Origin: Gemmatimonadota bacterium
GTDB lineage: Bacteria > Gemmatimonadota > Gemmatimonadetes > Palauibacterales > Palauibacteraceae
Assembly: GCA_035267645.1 (NCBI GenBank)
Contig: DATFLN010000034.1
Span: forward strand, 100,505-164,504
Direction of reading: 5' to 3'
DNA: 64,000 bases
Positions 28,606-51,319 of the stretch are shown piece after piece. The stretch's first letter is position 1, and every line of letters starts with the position of its first letter. The position numbers and the translations under genes are program-made. Under the pieces are notes generated by a model. The model made no database searches. It had not been told where the DNA came from and saw only the letters and a list, made by a program, of their open reading frames with translations.

Positions 28606-29610
28606 CTACGCCAGCCGGACGCCGGTCTCCCGGAGCGCCTCCACGATGCGCTTCCCGTGGTGGCGTCCGTTCTCGATGAAGATCCGGTTGGCGTCGTTCC
28701 CGGCGGTGAGGACGCCGGCCACGTACACGCCGGGGACGGGGGTCTCCAGCGTGTCGGGGTCGTGCTCGGGCACCCCGGTCTCGGGGTCGATCGGGACGCC
28801 CAGGTCCCGCAGGAGGCCCGGGCGGGCGTGCCAGCCCGTCATCGCGAACACCCAGTCGTTGTCGATCTCCTCCGCCTCGCCCGAGTCCACGTCCCGGAGG
28901 ACCACCGTGCCGGGCGTGATGCGCTCCACCCGCGTCGCCCAGCGCACCGGGATCTGCCCCTTCGCGAACCGGTTGCGGATGTCCGGGAGCACCCAGGGCT
29001 TCACCCCGGGGTCGAGCTCCCGGGCGAAGTGGACGAAGGTGACCCGCGCGCCGGCGCGCCACAGCTCGAGCGCGGCCTCGACCGCCGAGTTCCCGCCCCC
29101 CACCGTGATCACGTCCTGGCGCCAGTAGGGGTGGGGCTCGTCGTACCGGTGCGTCACCTTGGGGAGGTCCTCGCCCGGGGCCCCGATCGGGTTCGGGGCG
29201 TCGAAGCTCCCCGTGGCGACGACCACCGCCCGGGCGCGCGTCTCCCGCTCGCGGCCGGCGCGGTCCCGGCTCGCGAGCCGGAAGTCCCCCTCCTCGCCCT
29301 CCACCGAGACGACCTCCTCGAACTGGCGCACGTCCAGCTCGAAGTACTCCGCCGCGCGCCGATAGTAGGCCAGCGCCTCCTCCCGGGTGGGCTTGCCGCG
29401 CTCGATCGGGAAGGGGAGCCCCCCGATCTCGAGGCGGTCGGCGGTGCTGAAGAAGGTCATGTAGGGTCCGTACTCCCGGACGATCGTGGCCGTGAGCGGC
29501 CCGCGCTCGAACAGGGTGCAGCGGAGGCCCGCCCCGCGCGCGGCCGCACCCACGGCCAGCCCGCACGGGCCCGCTCCCACCACCGCCAGGTCCAGCATAT
29601 CGTCGCTCAT
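28606..29610 (-). CDS. ypdA: YpdA-family FAD/NAD(P)-binding disulfide reductase (putative bacillithiol disulfide reductase)
   Basis: Colinear with Bacillus YpdA as I recall it: VVGAGPCGLA, MTFFS, LPKVTHRYDEPHPY, VGGGNSAVEAALEL, KPWVLPD, NDWVFAMTGW, AGVLTAGNDANRIFIENGRHHG. The ATG at 29610 overlaps the upstream gene's stop (ATGA). Confidence 0.88.
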   Translation of the reverse strand: MSDDMLDLAVVGAGPCGLAVGAAARGAGLRCTLFERGPLTATIVREYGPYMTFFSTADRLEIGGLPFPIERGKPTREEALAYYRRAAEYFELDVRQFEEVVSVEGEEGDFRLASRDRAGRERETRARAVVVATGSFDAPNPIGAPGEDLPKVTHRYDEPHPYWRQDVITVGGGNSAVEAALELWRAGARVTFVHFARELDPGVKPWVLPDIRNRFAKGQIPVRWATRVERITPGTVVLRDVDSGEAEEIDNDWVFAMTGWHARPGLLRDLGVPIDPETGVPEHDPDTLETPVPGVYVAGVLTAGNDANRIFIENGRHHGKRIVEALRETGVRLA

Positions 29611-31796
29611 GGCTGCTCGGCACGCTCCGCACGGAAGGTGCCGCGGGGCTGCTCGAGGAGGACCGCCGCGACCTTCCCGTCCTTCTCGACGAACCGCGCG
29701 CTGTAGCCGGAGAGGCCGCGCAGGTCGAAGACGTCCTCCCGGCGCGGGACGAGCTCGTACAGGGGCTGGCCCGGGGTCTCGAGCACCAGGTGGTCCCCCC
29801 GCAGGGCCACGACGACCTGGAAGCTCTGGAGGTCGTAGATCCCCACGTAGCGCTGCAGCCAGGCGGGATCCCTCATGCGCTCGGGTGCCCGCCGCCCGAA
29901 GCTCACCGCCGGGACGGCCGGGTCCATCGGGGCCGACACCGTGGAGATCCGCCCCCGGAGGTCGGTCCCGAACTGGAAGGTGATCCCCTTCAGCGGATCG
30001 TCGGTGGCCCGCCACACGTCCAGGGTGACGTGCTCGAGCCGCGAGGAGAGCGAGTGGTAGGAGACCCGGAGTCCGACGGAGTCCGCGGAGATCCGGAGCG
30101 GGCCGTAGGCCGAGTCGGCGTAGGTCCCGGCGTAGTCGGAGCGCGGGTGGGTGGCCGGGAGCCCCGCGGCGCCCGTCCCGGCCGCGGCCCCCTCGCGGCT
30201 TCGCTCCCGTGCCGCCTCGGCGCGCTCCTGGAGGGCCTGGAAGCGGCCGTTCCAGTCGGCGGGCACCGTCCCCAGGAGCCGGTCCAGGGCCGTGAGCTCC
30301 ACGGCCACGGGGAGCTCCGTGCCGTTCAGGTTCGAGAGCACCACGACGCCGATCCCGAGGTCGGGAAGGAACCCGACCTCGGCCGAGAAGCCGTCGATGT
30401 TGCCCCCGTGGTGCAGGAACCGGTGGCCGCGGAAGGTCTGGACGAACCACCCCGAGCCGTAGTCCAGATCGGGCATCTCCGGCTGGCCGAGGAGGAGCCG
30501 GAAGACCTTCGAGTCGACGACCACCTGCGGCCGGTGGGTCTCCTCCAGCGTGGCCCGGGTGACGATGCTCCGGCCCTCCCAGCTCCCGTTCCCGAGCTGG
30601 AAGCGGAGCCAGCGGGCCATGTCGTGGGCGGTGGAGTTGATCGAGCCCGCCGGGCCGATCGCGTCGATGTCCCGGTAGGGCATGCGCACCGGGGCCTTCA
30701 CCGAGCTGTCGTCCGGGCTCGGCTTCAGCTCGTAGCCGAGCGCGTGGTCGTCGGTGGCCCGCAGGCTGTCGACCGACAGGCTCGTCTCCTCCATGGCCAG
30801 GGGCCCGAGGATGCGGGCGCGGAGCTGCGCCTCCCACGTCGACCCCGTCACCTGCCCGGCCAGCCAGCCGGCGGTCACGTACATGAGGTTCTGGTACTGG
30901 AAGTGGGTCCGGAAGTCCTCGCTCGGCTCCAGCCAGCGCAGGCGCCGGATCAGCTCGGGTCGCGACAGGTCGGATCCGTACCACAGGAGGTCGTGCCGCG
31001 GGAGGCCCGAGCGGTGGGTGAGGAGGTCGCGGGGCGTCATGCGCTCCGTGGCGAACTCGTCCTCCATCCGGAACGAGGGGAGCCAGGTGCGGACCGGCGT
31101 GTCCCAGTCCAGGAGCCCGTCGTCGACGAGCGTTCCCACCAGGAGCGCGGTGAACGCCTTGGTGGTCGAGCCGATCGGGAAGCCGGTGTGGGCGGTGACC
31201 GGGTCGCCTCCCTCCACGTCCCTCAGGCCGTAGCCCTGCTCGAGCACGACCTTTCCGTCGGCCACGATGGCCACCGCCGCGCCCGGCACCTTCCAGCTCC
31301 GGAGGCTGCTCCGTACGAAGTCGCCGAAGCCCTCCAGCGCGGCCTCGGGCGAGGGGAGGGCGCGCGCCGCCGCGGGCGGGCCCGTCCGCGCCAGGTGGAA
31401 CGGGACGTCCAGCCGGCCCTGGGTGAAGGTGCCCGACAGGCTGTCGCCCCCGGCCGTGACCCGGCCCCGGAACACCGGGGATCCCGCCACTCCCTCCAGG
31501 CCGAAGCGCACCGAGTCGCCCTCGACGGCCAGGTCCGAGACGGGGCGTCCCGTGACGCCCTGCGCCGGGATGTCGATCGTCCCGCTCCAGGCCCCGCCCC
31601 GACGCCAGAGGTCGACGGCGATCTCGAGCGGCGAGCCCGGCGTCAGAATGCTCCCCTCCCAGTGCGCCGCGGCCGGGGCCGTGTCCGCGGCCGCCGACTG
31701 CGCGGCGGCGGGCACGGCCGCGACGGCGACCAGGACGGCCGCGAGAGCCGCGGCGGCGGCGTGGCGGCGGGCGCGGTGCGGGAGGCCTGGTGTCAT
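29607..31796 (-). CDS. Secreted serine hydrolase of the beta-lactamase / penicillin-binding-protein (class C-like) family with extra N- and C-terminal domains
   Basis: In-frame ATG at 31796 (MTPGLPHRARRHAAAAALAAVLVAVAAVPAAAQ signal peptide). SxxK motif in FPIGSTTKAFTALLVG. LTHRSGLP and HHGGNIDGF blocks. Confidence 0.85.
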   Translation of the reverse strand: MTPGLPHRARRHAAAAALAAVLVAVAAVPAAAQSAAADTAPAAAHWEGSILTPGSPLEIAVDLWRRGGAWSGTIDIPAQGVTGRPVSDLAVEGDSVRFGLEGVAGSPVFRGRVTAGGDSLSGTFTQGRLDVPFHLARTGPPAAARALPSPEAALEGFGDFVRSSLRSWKVPGAAVAIVADGKVVLEQGYGLRDVEGGDPVTAHTGFPIGSTTKAFTALLVGTLVDDGLLDWDTPVRTWLPSFRMEDEFATERMTPRDLLTHRSGLPRHDLLWYGSDLSRPELIRRLRWLEPSEDFRTHFQYQNLMYVTAGWLAGQVTGSTWEAQLRARILGPLAMEETSLSVDSLRATDDHALGYELKPSPDDSSVKAPVRMPYRDIDAIGPAGSINSTAHDMARWLRFQLGNGSWEGRSIVTRATLEETHRPQVVVDSKVFRLLLGQPEMPDLDYGSGWFVQTFRGHRFLHHGGNIDGFSAEVGFLPDLGIGVVVLSNLNGTELPVAVELTALDRLLGTVPADWNGRFQALQERAEAARERSREGAAAGTGAAGLPATHPRSDYAGTYADSAYGPLRISADSVGLRVSYHSLSSRLEHVTLDVWRATDDPLKGITFQFGTDLRGRISTVSAPMDPAVPAVSFGRRAPERMRDPAWLQRYVGIYDLQSFQVVVALRGDHLVLETPGQPLYELVPRREDVFDLRGLSGYSARFVEKDGKVAAVLLEQPRGTFRAERAEQP

Positions 31797-31902
31797 ACGC
31801 GGGTCTCCGGGCTCGGGGACGGGCTGGGCCGGGGCCGAGCGCGCTCCGGCAGCGGCAAGGAAAGGTATCCCGGGCGGCGCGGCAAGCGGCGGGGAAGACC
31901 CC

Positions 31903-32556
31903 TCAGGAGCCCGCGCGCCGCAGCTCTCCGTAGGCGTAGCGCCACCCGAAGCGCTCCAGGACCTCCAGGAGGCGCACGACCGGGAGGCCCATGACGGCAA
32001 AGAAGTCCCCCTCGATCCCCTCGACGAGCGCGGCGCCCCGGGCCTGGATCCCGTAGCCTCCCGCCTTGTCGAGCGGCTCGCCGGTTGCCGCGTACTCCCG
32101 GAGCTCGGCGTCGGACAGCCGCCGGAAGCGGACCCGCGTGACCTCCACGGCCGCCTCGGTCCGCTCGGGCGTGGCGACCGCCACGCCCGTGCACACCAGG
32201 TGCTCCCGGCCCGAGAGCCGCCGCAGCATGGAGACGGCCTCCCGGGGGGATCCGGGCTTCTCCAGGATCTCGTCCCCGAGCGCGACGATCGTGTCGGCGG
32301 CCAGGACCAGCGCGCCCTCGCGCGCCGCCGACTCGGCCTTCTCCCGGGCCAGCCGCTCGGCGGCCTCCCGGGCGCCCTCCCCGGGCCGAAGGGTCTCGTC
32401 GATCCCCGCCGGGTCCACCTCGAAGGCCAGGCCGAGCCTGCGGAGGATCTCGGCCCGCCGCGGCGAGCGGGAGGCGAGGACGAGCCGGGGGGCGCCGCTC
32501 GTCCCGCCGCGCCCGGAGCCCGTGCCGGGGGCGCTGCCGGAGCCCGTGCCGCTCAC
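31903..32556 (-). CDS. maf: Maf-like nucleoside triphosphate pyrophosphatase (septum formation protein Maf)
   Basis: Blocks LVLASRSPRRAEILRRLG, LAADTIV, KAGGYGIQ and GDFFAVMGLP. The GTG at 32556 overlaps the trmFO stop (GTGA). The N-terminal part of track ORF 31903..33747 is a shadow of trmFO. Confidence 0.88.
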   Translation of the reverse strand: MSGTGSGSAPGTGSGRGGTSGAPRLVLASRSPRRAEILRRLGLAFEVDPAGIDETLRPGEGAREAAERLAREKAESAAREGALVLAADTIVALGDEILEKPGSPREAVSMLRRLSGREHLVCTGVAVATPERTEAAVEVTRVRFRRLSDAELREYAATGEPLDKAGGYGIQARGAALVEGIEGDFFAVMGLPVVRLLEVLERFGWRYAYGELRRAGS

Positions 32557-48667: not shown

Positions 48668-49060
48668 TCAGCTCGAGCTGCTGGAGGCGGGGAGGCCGCC
48701 GATCTGCCAGAACAGGGAGAGGGTGTCCCCCTGGGTCCAGGCCCGGGAGATCCGCTCCCCGTCCACCTCGTAGATCCCGAGCACCGGCAGCTCGACCGTG
48801 CGGCCGGAGGGAGGCACGCCCATGAACTCCCCCCGGTGGACGCCGCGGATCGTGAGCCGGGCCACGGCCCGGTTCCCGGCTCCGAACACGTCGTGCACCC
48901 GGACGGTGAAGGACGGGAAGGCGGCCTCGAAGTCGGCCAGCTCGTCCGCCAGCTCGGCGTCGGCCACGTAGGTCCGGATCGCGTCCCTGGACTTGGCGCG
49001 GCCCGAAAGGGCCGTGAAGACGTTCCTGACGACCGAGCTCGGATCGGCCGGTGCGCCCAT
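48668..49060 (-). CDS. SnoaL-like / predicted ester cyclase family protein (130 aa)
   Basis: In-frame ATG at 49060 preceded by GGGGAGGA. The pattern VHDVFGAGNRVAARLTIRGVHRGEFMGVPPSGRTVELPVLGIYEVDGERI is typical of the ester-cyclase family. The upstream part of track ORF 48668..49456 is not protein-like. Confidence 0.75.
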   Translation of the reverse strand: MGAPADPSSVVRNVFTALSGRAKSRDAIRTYVADAELADELADFEAAFPSFTVRVHDVFGAGNRAVARLTIRGVHRGEFMGVPPSGRTVELPVLGIYEVDGERISRAWTQGDTLSLFWQIGGLPASSSSS

Positions 49061-49252
49061 GCGGGTCCTCCCCGGACGGCGGTGGACGGGCGTCGCGACG
49101 ACGACGGTAGCGATCGTAGTATACAGTATGCGACCGATCGGAGGAAGGGTCGCCGGGATGCGGCGCGGGAGCTTCCGGACCCGGCCGCAGCCGGTCGCGG
49201 AAGGGGCGCTCGAGCCGGCGGCGTGCCGGGGCGCGGGCCCCCTTCGAGTCGT

Positions 49253-49327
49253 GACAGAATGTCGGGGGGGCGCCGGCCCGGTTCGGGACAGTCTGTCGCC
49301 CGGGGCGGCCCGGGCGGACGGTCCGTC
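49253..49327. promoter_or_regulatory. Array of three 11-bp palindromes (candidate enhancer/UAS for a sigma-54 activator)
   Basis: The three sites are GACAGAATGTC (49253-49263), GACAGTCTGTC (49287-49297) and GACGGTCCGTC (49317-49327). All fit GAC(A/G)G-N-C(T/C)GTC-like dyads, with GACA/TGTC or GACGG/CCGTC arms. Their centres are 34 and 30 bp apart. The last centre lies 79 bp upstream of the -24 element at 49401. Confidence 0.45.
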
Positions 49328-49399
49328 CGGGGCCTCGGAAGGCCCGGATCCCTCACGCCGGGCGGGGTTCCCGGGAGCCGCACCGCGCCGGCCTCCCGG

Positions 49400-49415
49400 G
49401 GGCACGCCGGTTGCA
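49400..49415 (+). promoter_or_regulatory. Sigma-54 (-24/-12) promoter
   Basis: The sequence gGGCACGccggTTGCAct matches the published consensus TGGCACG-N4-TTGCW at every core position except the first T. It sits inside an 864-bp region with no credible ORF. Confidence 0.6.
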
Positions 49416-49424
49416 CTATGAGGA

Positions 49425-49727
49425 AGGCCCTGCGACGAGGAAGCTTCGGCGACCACGACGTGGGTTTCGGCGCCCGATGGTTCGGGCCGGAGGGCGCCAC
49501 GCCTGACGGGAGTTTGGCCCGATCAGGCCGACTGGGAGGTCGTCGGACCCAGTCCGTAGTCCCGGGAACGGGGACGCTTGAGTCGCGAGCTTAGACTCAC
49601 GACGAGGGAAAGAGCCGGCAGCCAGGTCACCACACGGGGTGGCGCCAAACCGACTGGCCAAGGTTCGCCGACGCAACGAGGCCCCCGATCGGATCCGTGA
49701 ATCCGGTCGGGGGTTTCGTCTTGTCTG
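49425..49727 (+). ncRNA. Candidate ~300-nt sigma-54-dependent small RNA (family unknown)
   Basis: The 5' end is predicted about 12 nt downstream of the -12 GC, and the 3' end is set by the intrinsic terminator at 49682-49727. No ORF here has a Shine-Dalgarno or the local codon bias. There are many local helices, for example GGCGCCC 49469-49475 pairing with GGGCGCC 49492-49498. The ends are predictions only. Confidence 0.4.
49682..49727 (+). terminator. Rho-independent terminator
   Basis: A 13-bp stem pairs CCCCCGATCGGAT (49682-49694) with ATCCGGTCGGGGG (49701-49713), including one G-U pair. The loop is CCGTGA and it is followed by TTTCGTCTTGTCTG. No + strand coding gene ends upstream of it. 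Confidence 0.6.
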
Positions 49728-49924
49728 CGGGGCATCCGGTCTCCGCCGCGTGGGGAGTTCCCCACCTTCGGCCTTTCTTCCCGTTTCGCTCTCCGCGCCA
49801 CCTCGTATCTTGAGGATCCCCTCTCGGGGATCTCGACACCTCGACGACAGACGGGCGACGCCTCACCGGCCCCCGCGGGCCCCGGCCGACCCCCCTCGAC
49901 CAGGACGGAGCGAGCGAGACCGGC

Positions 49925-51319
49925 GTGCCACAGCGGGACAGCGATGGGGGGAGTGTCTCCAGGATCCTCGTCCTCGATCGGGACGAGCCGAGGCGGGCGC
50001 GCGTGGCCGCCGTCCTCGAGGGACGGGGCTACCGGGCGCAGACGGCCGGCCGCGGGGACGAGGGGCTCCGCCGGCTCCGTGAGGAGCGCTACGACGCGGC
50101 GATCGCGGCGGCCGACCTCCCCGGCGTCTCCGGGCTCGACCTCCTGGACCGGATCGACCCCCTCGAGACCGACGCCCGGGTCGTGGCCGTCGTGGACGAG
50201 GGGGACGTGGGCTCGGCCGTGGAGGCGATGCGCCGGGGCGCCGCCGACTGCCTCTCCATGCCCCTCGACACCGACCGCCTCCTGGAGGTCGTCGGCCGCG
50301 CGGTCGAGGCGTCGGTGCGCCGCCGGGCCGCACGACGCCGGGACGAGGGAGAGGACGACCTCCGGGTCCCGATCCTGGGCCGCTCGGCCGCCATCCGCCG
50401 CACCATGAGCCTGGTCCGCCGGGTGGCGCCGACCCGCTCCTCCGTGCTCGTGACCGGGGAGACGGGGACGGGGAAGGAGCTGGTGGCCCGGGCCATCCAC
50501 GAGCTGTCGCCGCGGGAGGAAGAGCCGTTCATCGCGGTGGTGTGCTCGGCCCTGCCGGACACGCTGCTCGAGGCCGAGCTGTTCGGCCACCGCAAGGGGA
50601 GCTTCACGGGAGCCCACGCGGACCGGCGCGGGCTCATCGAGGAGGCGCACGGCGGCACCCTCTTCCTGGACGAGATCGCCACCGTGCCCACCGACGTGCA
50701 GGTGAAGCTCCTCCGGGTGCTGGAGGAGCGCAGGGTGCGGCGCGTGGGCGGCGGGGAGATCGTGCCGGTCGATTTCCGCCTGGTGGCCGCCACCAACGAG
50801 GACCTCGAGGACGCCGTGGCGGAGGGGAGCTTCCGGGAGGACCTCTTCTTCCGGCTCAACGTCTTCCCGATCCGGGTGCCGCCGCTCCGCGAGCGGCGCG
50901 AGGACATCCCGGTCCTGGCCGAGCACTTTCGCCGCCGCTTCGCCGAAGAGAGCGGCATCGGGGCGCCGGCCATCCTGCCCGAGACGATGGTCCGCATGCA
51001 GGAGTACCGCTGGCCGGGGAACGTGCGGGAGCTCGAGCACTTCATCGAGCGCGCGATGCTCCTGTACGCGGACCGGGACGCGATCCGCTTCGAGCCGCCG
51101 ACCCGGCGCGGGCGCGGCGAGGCCGGCGACCTCCTGTCCAGGGCGGAGGACGAGCGCTGGGACCTCGAGCGGCTCGAGCGCGAGTACATCCTCCGGATCC
51201 TGGAGGAGGCCGGGGGGAACCGGACCCGGGCCGCCGAGATCCTGGGGGTCCACCGGCGGACCCTGGCCCGCCGGATGGAGCGCTACCGGGAGCGGCCGCG
51301 CTCGGGCCGCCGGTCCTAG
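49925..51319 (+). CDS. Sigma-54-dependent transcriptional activator, NtrC-family response regulator (REC-AAA+-HTH)
   Basis: Receiver domain (ILVLDRDE ... AADLPGVSGLDLL). AAA+ domain with Walker A GETGTGKE, the sigma-54 contact loop GSFTGA (a GAFTGA variant), LFLDEI, RVGG and FREDLFFRLNV. C-terminal Fis-type HTH NRTRAAEILGVHRRTLARRM. GTG start at 49925. Confidence 0.92.
   Translation: MPQRDSDGGSVSRILVLDRDEPRRARVAAVLEGRGYRAQTAGRGDEGLRRLREERYDAAIAAADLPGVSGLDLLDRIDPLETDARVVAVVDEGDVGSAVEAMRRGAADCLSMPLDTDRLLEVVGRAVEASVRRRAARRRDEGEDDLRVPILGRSAAIRRTMSLVRRVAPTRSSVLVTGETGTGKELVARAIHELSPREEEPFIAVVCSALPDTLLEAELFGHRKGSFTGAHADRRGLIEEAHGGTLFLDEIATVPTDVQVKLLRVLEERRVRRVGGGEIVPVDFRLVAATNEDLEDAVAEGSFREDLFFRLNVFPIRVPPLRERREDIPVLAEHFRRRFAEESGIGAPAILPETMVRMQEYRWPGNVRELEHFIERAMLLYADRDAIRFEPPTRRGRGEAGDLLSRAEDERWDLERLEREYILRILEEAGGNRTRAAEILGVHRRTLARRMERYRERPRSGRRS

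Follow-up and report, generated by a model that had tools for sequence, protein, structure and literature searches.

The closest described counterparts of the locus reported here are three systems in which a small RNA (sRNA) gene stands beside the gene for the NtrC-family protein that activates it: GlmY/GlmZ with GlrR (QseF) in Enterobacteriaceae, CrcZ with CbrB in Pseudomonas, and Qrr with LuxO in Vibrio. GlmY acts by sequestering the protein RapZ (PMC7073468), and the sigma-54/GlrR control of glmY/glmZ has been replaced in some species by sigma-70 promoters at the same start site (PMC3045617). The crcZ gene always maps beside cbrB and has an RpoN promoter (PMC5113210), and CrcZ acts by titrating a protein, Hfq/Crc (PMC4063720). 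Qrr is likewise a sigma-54-dependent sRNA encoded beside its activating response regulator, the arrangement also seen here (bioRxiv 10.1101/2021.07.01.450815). We analyzed a 64,000-nucleotide (nt) stretch of a Gemmatimonadota genome (assembly GCA_035267645.1, contig DATFLN010000034.1, positions 100,505 to 164,504), called the window throughout, in which a candidate noncoding RNA at 49426-49727 on the + strand lies upstream of the gene for an orphan NtrC-family response regulator and sigma-54 activator. The RNA appears to found a new family and probably acts in trans, its synthesis depending on sigma-54 and on the adjacent activator.

As judged by comparison of sequences, the locus has the layout of GlmY/GlrR, CrcZ/CbrB, and Qrr/LuxO, and the RNA belongs to none of these by sequence or structure. 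It shares with GlmY/GlmZ a sigma-54 promoter, an NtrC-family response regulator, and conserved upstream sites, it adjoins its activator gene as glmY adjoins glrK-glrR, and a promoter difference between clades of the RNA parallels the sigma-54 to sigma-70 exchange in glmY/glmZ. GlmY differs in length (~150–180 nt) and in its three simple stem-loops, in place of which the present RNA has eight helices and three tertiary pairings; GlrR uses three enhancer sites rather than two, the phylum is another, the activator here is an orphan without an adjacent kinase, unlike glrK-glrR, and there is no sequence or Rfam similarity. CrcZ is likewise a large sRNA (~400 nt) directly adjoining its NtrC-family activator gene, but crcZ lies downstream of cbrB whereas the RNA lies upstream of its activator; CrcZ relies on repeated A-rich motifs that are absent here, tertiary pseudoknots have not been described for it in contrast to the three long-range pairings of the present RNA, and the two show no homology. 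Qrr RNAs are ~100 nt, Hfq dependent, seed pairing, and often multicopy, whereas the RNA studied here is three times longer, tertiary structured, and single copy, no second copy having been found in the window. An earlier reading of the window from its letters alone (the original prediction) had likened the locus to sigma-54-dependent sRNAs such as Qrr; that likeness holds for the layout but not for the fold, which is far more elaborate than that of typical base-pairing sRNAs.

In fold, the nearest counterparts are raiA motif RNA, OLE, ROOL, and GOLLD, which combine many covarying helices with pseudoknots or kissing loops, have loop nucleotides that do not vary, and are transcribed as units of their own. 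The RNA described here is comparable in size or somewhat smaller, and its function, like theirs, cannot be deduced from context. We know of none among these four that is under the control of sigma-54 and an enhancer-binding protein; the present RNA is restricted to Gemmatimonadota lineages, and the Rfam models of all four are unmatched.

Secondary and Tertiary Structure of the RNA

A hand-built model of eight hairpins, H1 to H8, was tested on an alignment of 15 distinct sequences (alignment A4) against controls in which the 3′ partners were slid by 1–3 columns and against 500 shuffles. In the model, 93.0% of cells are paired compared with 35–43% in the slid controls, 42 of the 87 pairs change on both sides, and the observed values were reached by 0 of the 500 shuffles. 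The conservation and covariation in relatives whose absence would have refuted the original prediction are present, and its description of an interval dense in local helices agrees with the folding statistics: the predicted RNA (~68% G+C) folds better than 100 of 100 shuffles, with a z-score of −3.7, and is strongly conserved across relatives. G-U pairs are frequent and fit the plus strand alone, since the opposite strand would have C-A mismatches in their place; the functional strand is thus the plus strand. The RNA consists, as comparison of its homologs demonstrates, of eight hairpins locked together by three long-range pairings, T1 to T3. Its parts are as follows (related loci, here and below, carry numbers prefixed with L).

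49426-49727, + strand: noncoding RNA of ~300 nt, from a predicted 5′ end to the U-rich tail
49428-49464, + strand: H1, irregular 5′ hairpin with a UUCG loop (RNAalifold, 11 sequences)
49469-49498, + strand: H2, hairpin in which three pairs change on both sides
49501-49528, + strand: H3, hairpin in which 7 of 10 pairs covary; its loop GUUUGG is the 5′ strand of T1
49530-49554, + strand: H4, hairpin with a loop containing near-invariant GAGGU and CGUCGG, the latter the 5′ strand of T2
49559-49575, + strand: H5, GNRA (GGAA) hairpin GUCCCGGGAACGGGGAC, pairing as GUCCCG-GGAA-CGGGGAC
49577-49608, + strand: H6, hairpin followed by the purine-rich junction
49604-49614, + strand: purine-rich junction GAGGGAAAGAG, nearly invariant across the 15 sequences
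49612-49666, + strand: H7, three-part hairpin with 10 covarying pairs; its internal loop is the 3′ strand of T1 and its apical loop the 5′ strand of T3
49676-49727, + strand: H8, predicted terminator hairpin of 19 base pairs (bp) at 49676-49719, with the U-rich tail at 49714-49727
49512-49517 with 49645-49650, + strand: T1, H3 loop GUUUGG with H7 internal loop CCAAAC
49541-49546 with 49668-49673, + strand: T2, pseudoknot of H4 loop CGUCGG with CCGACG
49633-49637 with 49695-49699, + strand: T3, H7 apical loop CACGG with terminator loop CCGUG

The hairpin H5 is invariant in all 15 sequences except for one bulged base (A in L091), and other helices change in concert: CCCACG/CGUGGG of H1 becomes CCUG/CAGG in L093 and L212, and H8 contains 12 covarying pairs, its loop CCGUG (49695-49699) providing the 3′ strand of T3. 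The long-range pairings covary as well. The middle pair of T1 is U-A in eight sequences, G-C in five, and C-G in two, and T2 changes from CGUCGG:CCGACG to CGCUGG:CCAGCG in seven sequences, with three covarying pairs and 97.8% pairing. The outer pair of T3 is CG in 11 sequences and UA in four, UACGG:CCGUA being the form of the Palauibacterales group described below. Taken together, T1 to T3 are 94.8% paired, compared with 32–44% in slid controls. A closing helix between GCUUCGGC at the 5′ side and GCCGACGC at the 3′ side, which had come from a first RNAalifold analysis of six sequences, was discarded: its 3′ strand covaries with the H4 loop instead, and its 5′ segment forms the UUCG-capped H1 on its own.

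Segments that are both conserved and exposed would allow the RNA to act as a classical base-pairing sRNA, with a stretch such as GAGGGAAAGAG or the GAGGU loop pairing antisense with mRNAs. Base-pairing types such as Qrr are among the studied sigma-54-dependent sRNAs encoded beside activators, and conserved unpaired purine-rich stretches are indeed present. However, seed-type sRNAs are not typically ~300 nt long or built of eight helices and three tertiary pairings, intramolecular contacts occupy most of the invariant loop bases, the purine-rich segments look like Shine-Dalgarno sequences and not like anti-Shine-Dalgarno seeds, and no conserved complementary target was identified. We regard antisense pairing as an unlikely mode of action for this RNA.

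Absence of a Coding Signal

A protein could be suggested by an ATG-initiated open reading frame (ORF) of 59 codons at 49418-49594 and by long antisense open frames in some family members; G+C-rich DNA, moreover, folds well by chance. That the conserved interval is a small protein gene or a chance structure is nonetheless barely credible. The ATG of the 59-codon ORF, which the original prediction had already dismissed as a gene, is lost in relatives, every reading frame has stops in some member of the family, indels among relatives are not multiples of three, and variable columns fall evenly on the three codon positions (41/45/42), so that a 3-nt periodicity is lacking. Chance structure is countered by covariation far above the controls. 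The NCBI pipeline appears to have called no coding sequence (CDS) in the gap, since the accessions on either side are consecutive (HKK27368, which by ORF count is the SnoaL-like protein, and HKK27369, the activator), in keeping with the earlier view that the gap holds no credible ORF. With compensatory changes beyond those of the controls and without a coding signal, the interval presents the pattern expected of a structured noncoding RNA.

The RNA was also compared with the activator CDS across the same genome pairs. Nucleotide identities for RNA and CDS were 96.7/93.0, 89.5/77.7, 86.9/79.3, 86.6/78.2, and 85.7/79.7%, and the spacer upstream is alignable only in the closest relative. By this measure the RNA gene is under stronger nucleotide conservation than the adjacent activator gene (86–90% compared with 78–80%).

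A Predicted Sigma-54 Promoter and Two Putative Upstream Activator Sites

The features that surround the RNA on its activator side and upstream are the following.

49251-49264, + strand: upstream activator site 1, GTGACAGAATGTCG, an exact match to TGACA-N3-TGTCG, 149 nt upstream of the −24 GG
49285-49298, + strand: upstream activator site 2, GGGACAGTCTGTCG, spaced 34 bp from site 1, with the −24 GG 115 nt downstream
49400-49415, + strand: sigma-54 promoter GGGCACGCCGGTTGCA, with the −24 GG at 49401-49402 and the −12 GC at 49413-49414
49765-49811, + strand: conserved block CCTTCGGCCTTTCTTCCCGTTTCGC-N16-TATCTT, with a −35-like element at 49784-49789 and a −10-like element at 49806-49811
49925-51319, + strand: gene for an orphan NtrC-family response regulator and sigma-54 activator (receiver, AAA+ with GSFTGA, HTH_8)

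The rightward sigma-54 promoter core reported in the original prediction is present at 49400-49415 (+), where GG and GC elements stand at the exact 10-nt spacing of the consensus (TGGCAC-N5-TTGCW); its position predicts an RNA start at ~49425-49427. The exact core GGCACG-N4-TTGC has only two copies in the window. Similarity to relatives (blastn) begins at 49399/49400, that is, at the promoter, and the GGCACG/TTGC core and its spacing persist, across spacers that vary (CCGG, GGGG, CGGG, GGCG, and GCGG), in every one of the 10 related loci whose upstream sequence is intact. The promoters of the distant loci L093 and L212 read GGTACG in place of GGCACG.

Two copies of TGACA-N3-TGTCG upstream of the promoter have, as sequence motifs, the standard layout of tandem NtrC-type activator sites. 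Site 1 is found at −147 to −159 in 10 of the 10 sigma-54-type loci. Both sites occur in seven loci, at −149/−150 and −115/−116 (−159/−125 in L101), and in the three most distant loci (L091, L093, and L212) site 1 is kept at −147 to −150 while site 2 is degenerate. The DNA around the sites is alignable only in the closest relative. The linkage of the sites to the activator gene suggests that the neighboring activator binds both of them.

The activator matches Response_reg (3.5e-15), Sigma54_activat (6.1e-69), and HTH_8 (7e-15) in Pfam, and thus combines a receiver, an AAA+ domain for sigma-54 interaction, and a C-terminal Fis-type helix-turn-helix, as expected from its sequence of an NtrC-family enhancer-binding protein. 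It is 464 aa long, the same length as HKK27369.1 of NCBI, and three proteins of the window are identical to NCBI entries. Its start differs among gene callers (464 aa in NCBI, 489 aa in JGI, and 438 aa in other cluster members), and this disagreement (window 49925 versus L081 4001) shifts the deduced 5′ untranslated region (UTR) of the activator by at most ~75 nt and leaves the conclusions unaffected.

The second exact copy of GGCACG-N4-TTGC, at 38749-38736 (−), lies ~110 nt upstream of an Hsp20/alpha-crystallin gene. The Hsp20 ORF at 38626-38165 (−) has a Pfam match of 6.1e-23 and a Shine-Dalgarno sequence and is followed by a terminator-like hairpin at ~38117-38085 (−). The hsp20 gene is likely sigma-54 dependent, and because its upstream region lacks TGACA-N3-TGTCG a different activator is implied. 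The occurrence of the second exact copy before hsp20 indicates that sigma-54 promoters appear to be in real use in the source genome. No further convincing enhancer sites were found in the window, which contains eight loose TGACA-N3-TGTCG matches compared with 14 expected. A near-perfect palindrome, GCGACAGCCTGTCG at 31433-31447, differs from the enhancer motif at one position; it is found inside a beta-lactamase-family gene (29607-32000, −), and no sigma-54 promoter occurs at a suitable distance.

Distribution of the RNA and Its Promoters

Relatives of the activator were collected by protein search, and the DNA around 12 of them was compared. Orthologs were found at 95%, 76–79%, and 59–62% identity, followed by many Gemmatimonadota homologs at 53–58%. 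An RNA homolog lies immediately upstream on the same strand in all eight loci whose activator identity is at least 59%, and is absent upstream of four activator relatives at 57–58% identity, L094, L095, and L213 among them; the activators of L094 and L095 stand directly behind a histidine-kinase gene. The RNA was also absent from 80 loci with more distant NtrC paralogs of other phyla (37–47% identity, protein scan of a genome collection). These comparisons place the RNA with a single activator clade.

A metagenome scan with the invariant H5 sequence returned 116 stretches, among which a profile search separated true members from chance matches to the pattern, and nhmmer detected the RNA in 25 loci with E values of 1e-25 to 1e-98. 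Along with further sigma-54-type loci, these members included four contigs (L109, L144, L145, and L194) with a diverged copy (E 1e-25 to 1e-28) that keeps the structure through many of the compensatory changes counted above. A protein of L109 is 100% identical to one from a metagenome-assembled genome (MAG) of Candidatus Palauibacterales, an order of Gemmatimonadota (PMC10469786). The two Palauibacterales contigs that include the upstream region carry TTGACG-17-TAAGAT and TTGACG-17-TAGTAT (promoter scan, 0.0 expected), and with these sigma-70 promoters the 5′ end would fall no more than ~2 nt from the homologous counterpart of the predicted sigma-54 start. None of the four recovered contigs has an activator gene beside the RNA, whose neighbors there are an AddB-like nuclease, a TPR protein, GIY-YIG and DUF389 proteins, and unknowns. 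On the sequences recovered, the RNA family is wider than the activator module. The proposal of an activator-plus-sRNA module of an undescribed family thus stands in one respect, in that promoter and enhancer sites are conserved upstream of orthologous activators, and has to be widened in another, since in Palauibacterales the RNA has a sigma-70 promoter. A trans-acting product is favored because one RNA occurs with two promoter types and different neighbors.

Two other origins were considered for parts of this set and rejected. An archaeal origin of the sigma-70 group does not fit, as L109 belongs to Palauibacterales, the promoters are of the bacterial form TTGACG-N17-TAxxAT, and Archaea_SRP was not matched. 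A mobile or viral element is likewise not indicated, a scan of viral contigs having given only the bare 18-nt pattern. That H5 pattern, AGTCCCGGGAACNGGGAC, occurs at least four times on the 40-kb viral contig IMGVR_UViG_3300014656_000053 (L214, L215, and L217); the copies otherwise have no similarity to the RNA and presumably represent a repeated element of the contig's own. On L145, a very acidic D-3-phosphoglycerate-dehydrogenase-like protein (936-1907, +) adjoins the RNA at 276-49 (−) and is 99–100% identical to proteins of Haloarculaceae MAGs and 63–67% identical to those of cultured haloarchaea, for which three causes are conceivable: the gene may have moved laterally into a halophilic bacterium, the MAG may be mis-binned, or the contig may be chimeric. 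In L144 (~318-333) and in L145 (minus strand), the ORF just downstream of the RNA begins with GGAGGTCGTCATG. The string GAGGUCGUC recurs inside the RNA, in the H2 region of L144 and L145 and in the H4 loop GGGAGGUCGUCGG of the window, and may be a coincidence or a shared recognition element.

Predicted Terminator, Downstream Promoter-Like Block, and a Possible Leader Function

The 3′ end of the RNA is predicted at H8, whose 19-bp stem contains the 13-bp core noted in the original prediction and whose tail reads UUUCGUCUUGUCUG. The hairpin is thus longer than had been reported, but the word textbook does not suit it: a consensus terminator scan did not call H8 in the window, because its U tract is interrupted. 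The same scan calls the homologous hairpin in L087, with the tail GCTTTTTTGC. Termination of transcription at H8 is what we infer from the hairpin and its tail, and some read-through into the activator gene is possible.

Downstream of the hairpin, the block at 49765-49811 is the sole conserved stretch, its flanks being unconserved. The motif TTTCGC-N16-TATCTT within it persists throughout the sigma-54-type loci, even in the distant L091, L092, L093, and L212, and would serve as the activator gene's own sigma-70-type promoter, although a generic consensus promoter scan did not call it in the window. Because this promoter-like block separates the terminator from the activator gene, separate transcripts are favored; if the block is a promoter, synthesis of the activator does not depend on that of the RNA, and the two are separate products.

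These features bear on whether the RNA is instead a cis-acting leader, a riboswitch or attenuator that senses a ligand or protein and sets the read-through into the activator gene, giving signal-dependent autoregulation. Such a leader would account for the constant position of the RNA upstream of the activator on the same strand in the sigma-54 group, for the weak U tract in the window, and for a fold of riboswitch-grade complexity; in two Palauibacterales contigs, too, an ORF with a Shine-Dalgarno sequence starts 30–45 nt past the hairpin, which leaves room for a cis role there and counts against a purely trans-acting product. It is harder to reconcile with the conserved promoter-like block between hairpin and activator gene, with the 100–200 nt of otherwise unconserved DNA in the same interval, and with a very stable 19-bp stem that has no evident competing antiterminator. 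The terminator loop, moreover, takes part in a conserved kissing contact, and by implication this hairpin forms at all times; the Palauibacterales copies precede unrelated genes (AddB-like nuclease, TPR protein, and unknowns); and no riboswitch family was matched. We consider a leader function quite unlikely. As to whether the RNA is a discrete unit or a plain 5′ UTR of the activator gene, the conserved block argues against the latter, with the reservation of partial read-through just given.

Comparison with Known RNA Families

At gathering score, Rfam 15 gave 0 matches over the whole 64-kb window. A permissive search of 49000-50000 (E ≤ 10) returned only chance miRNA-type matches on the hairpin and the actinobacterial Ms_IGR-5 (12.8 bits, E = 2.6, compared with a threshold of 45), and in six homologous loci the RNA was unmatched at E ≤ 5. 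Families unmatched include GlmY_tke1, GlmZ_SraJ, Qrr, CrcZ, NrsZ, 6S, SRP, RNase P, tmRNA, CsrB/Rsm, riboswitches, raiA, OLE, ROOL, and GOLLD. The view that the family is undescribed therefore survives both the window and its relatives, even at permissive E values, and a search of the literature for noncoding RNA in Gemmatimonadota, or for sigma-54-dependent sRNAs there, found no description.

A divergent housekeeping RNA (6S, SRP, RNase P, or tmRNA) or a CsrB/Rsm-type sponge might escape the Rfam models, and the size of the RNA, in the range of SRP, 6S, or Ms1-type RNAs, its several GGA/GAGG motifs, and the one weak match to Ms_IGR-5 could be read in this sense. No significant match was obtained in the window or in the six homologous loci, however, the architecture is unlike that of SRP, RNase P, or tmRNA, and control by sigma-54 and enhancer sites is unfit for a constitutive RNA. 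We find this explanation very improbable. Three candidates were examined individually and rejected. A CsrA sponge had been prompted by the repeated GAGG(G)AA, but just two GGA triplets persist throughout the family, one in the H5 loop and one in the junction between H6 and H7, and no GGA is conserved in the other loops. The A-rich (ARN/CA) repeats of a CrcZ-type Hfq sponge are absent from this G+C-rich RNA. For 6S RNA, the consensus has eight serial hairpins and three tertiary contacts and lacks the closing rod and central bubble.

Flanking Genes

The RNA lies in an 864-bp gap between a SnoaL-like gene and the sigma-54 activator gene; they stand where the original prediction had placed an ester-cyclase-like gene and a sigma-54 activator gene, on the minus and plus strands, respectively.

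48668-49060, − strand: SnoaL-like gene, annotated by domain search

The gene that diverges from or precedes the RNA varies by clade. It is the SnoaL-like gene in the window, a MerR plus B12-binding (CarH-like) regulator together with DUF378 in L082, L087, and L090, and a methionine sulfoxide reductase (PMSR) gene in L093 and L212. Genes for a tricorn protease, TauE, and an OPT transporter remain near the locus in closer relatives.

Discussion

The conserved promoter, enhancer sites, RNA, fold, and family are evident from comparison among relatives, and they are best explained, in our judgment probably correctly, by a trans-acting noncoding RNA of a new family that depends on sigma-54 and its activator. 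The orphan NtrC-type response regulator would be made from its own sigma-70-type promoter, and, once phosphorylated by some kinase, would bind the TGACA-N3-TGTCG sites at −149 and −115 and drive sigma-54 RNA polymerase from GGCACG-N4-TTGC, as the conservation of these elements suggests. Transcription would stop at the 19-bp hairpin with its U-rich tail, and the RNA would fold through contacts between the H3 loop and the H7 internal loop, between the H4 loop and the strand before the terminator, and between the H7 loop and the terminator loop. The folded RNA would then act in trans as the output of a signaling pathway, which is the weakest step of this scheme, most likely with the invariant loops and the purine-rich junction as contact sites for a protein or another partner, and not with a simple antisense seed. 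An RNA of this size, with three tertiary contacts and loops that do not vary, seems more likely to be recognized by a protein or ligand through its structure than to pair with targets through a seed; granted a trans-acting, sigma-54-dependent RNA, we would give this mode somewhat less than an even chance.

Several points, beyond the possible read-through and the Palauibacterales ORFs considered above, weigh against this interpretation. All sequences come from metagenome assemblies, and the 5′ and 3′ ends of the RNA, its sigma-54 dependence, and activator binding are all deduced from sequence. The loop of the activator is GSFTGA, a variant of the canonical GAFTGA, and rpoN was not seen in the 64-kb window. 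T3 appears to be the least secure of the pairings, with only ~1–2 independent changes, and no partner protein or target has been identified for the RNA.

A trans-acting, sigma-54-dependent RNA could be more than another sRNA of this type. Tentatively, and at clearly less than even odds, we suggest that it may represent a new class of large tertiary-structured bacterial RNA to whose production a sigma-54 two-component pathway of halophilic or marine Gemmatimonadota is dedicated, perhaps exclusively, and that its mechanism may be new to sigma-54-dependent sRNAs, such as metabolite binding or a specific ribonucleoprotein. If that were true, the complexity of its fold would be comparable to that of riboswitches, ribozymes, or RNA-protein machines.

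To our knowledge, and in the literature searched, no regulatory RNA has been described in the Gemmatimonadota, a widespread phylum with few cultured members, and a regulatory RNA here would add a new phylum to those with such RNAs. The locus has the parts of a complete circuit, from an orphan response regulator and two enhancer sites through a sigma-54 promoter to the RNA and its terminator, and the model of the RNA's secondary and tertiary structure is well supported. It would extend to a distant phylum the pairing of a sigma-54 activator gene with an sRNA gene known from Proteobacteria, with an RNA far more elaborately folded than Qrr, GlmY, or CrcZ. With sigma-54 promoters in one clade and sigma-70 promoters in another, the control of a single RNA has evidently been rewired. 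Should this RNA be the activator's main target, its partner would reveal what the pathway controls.

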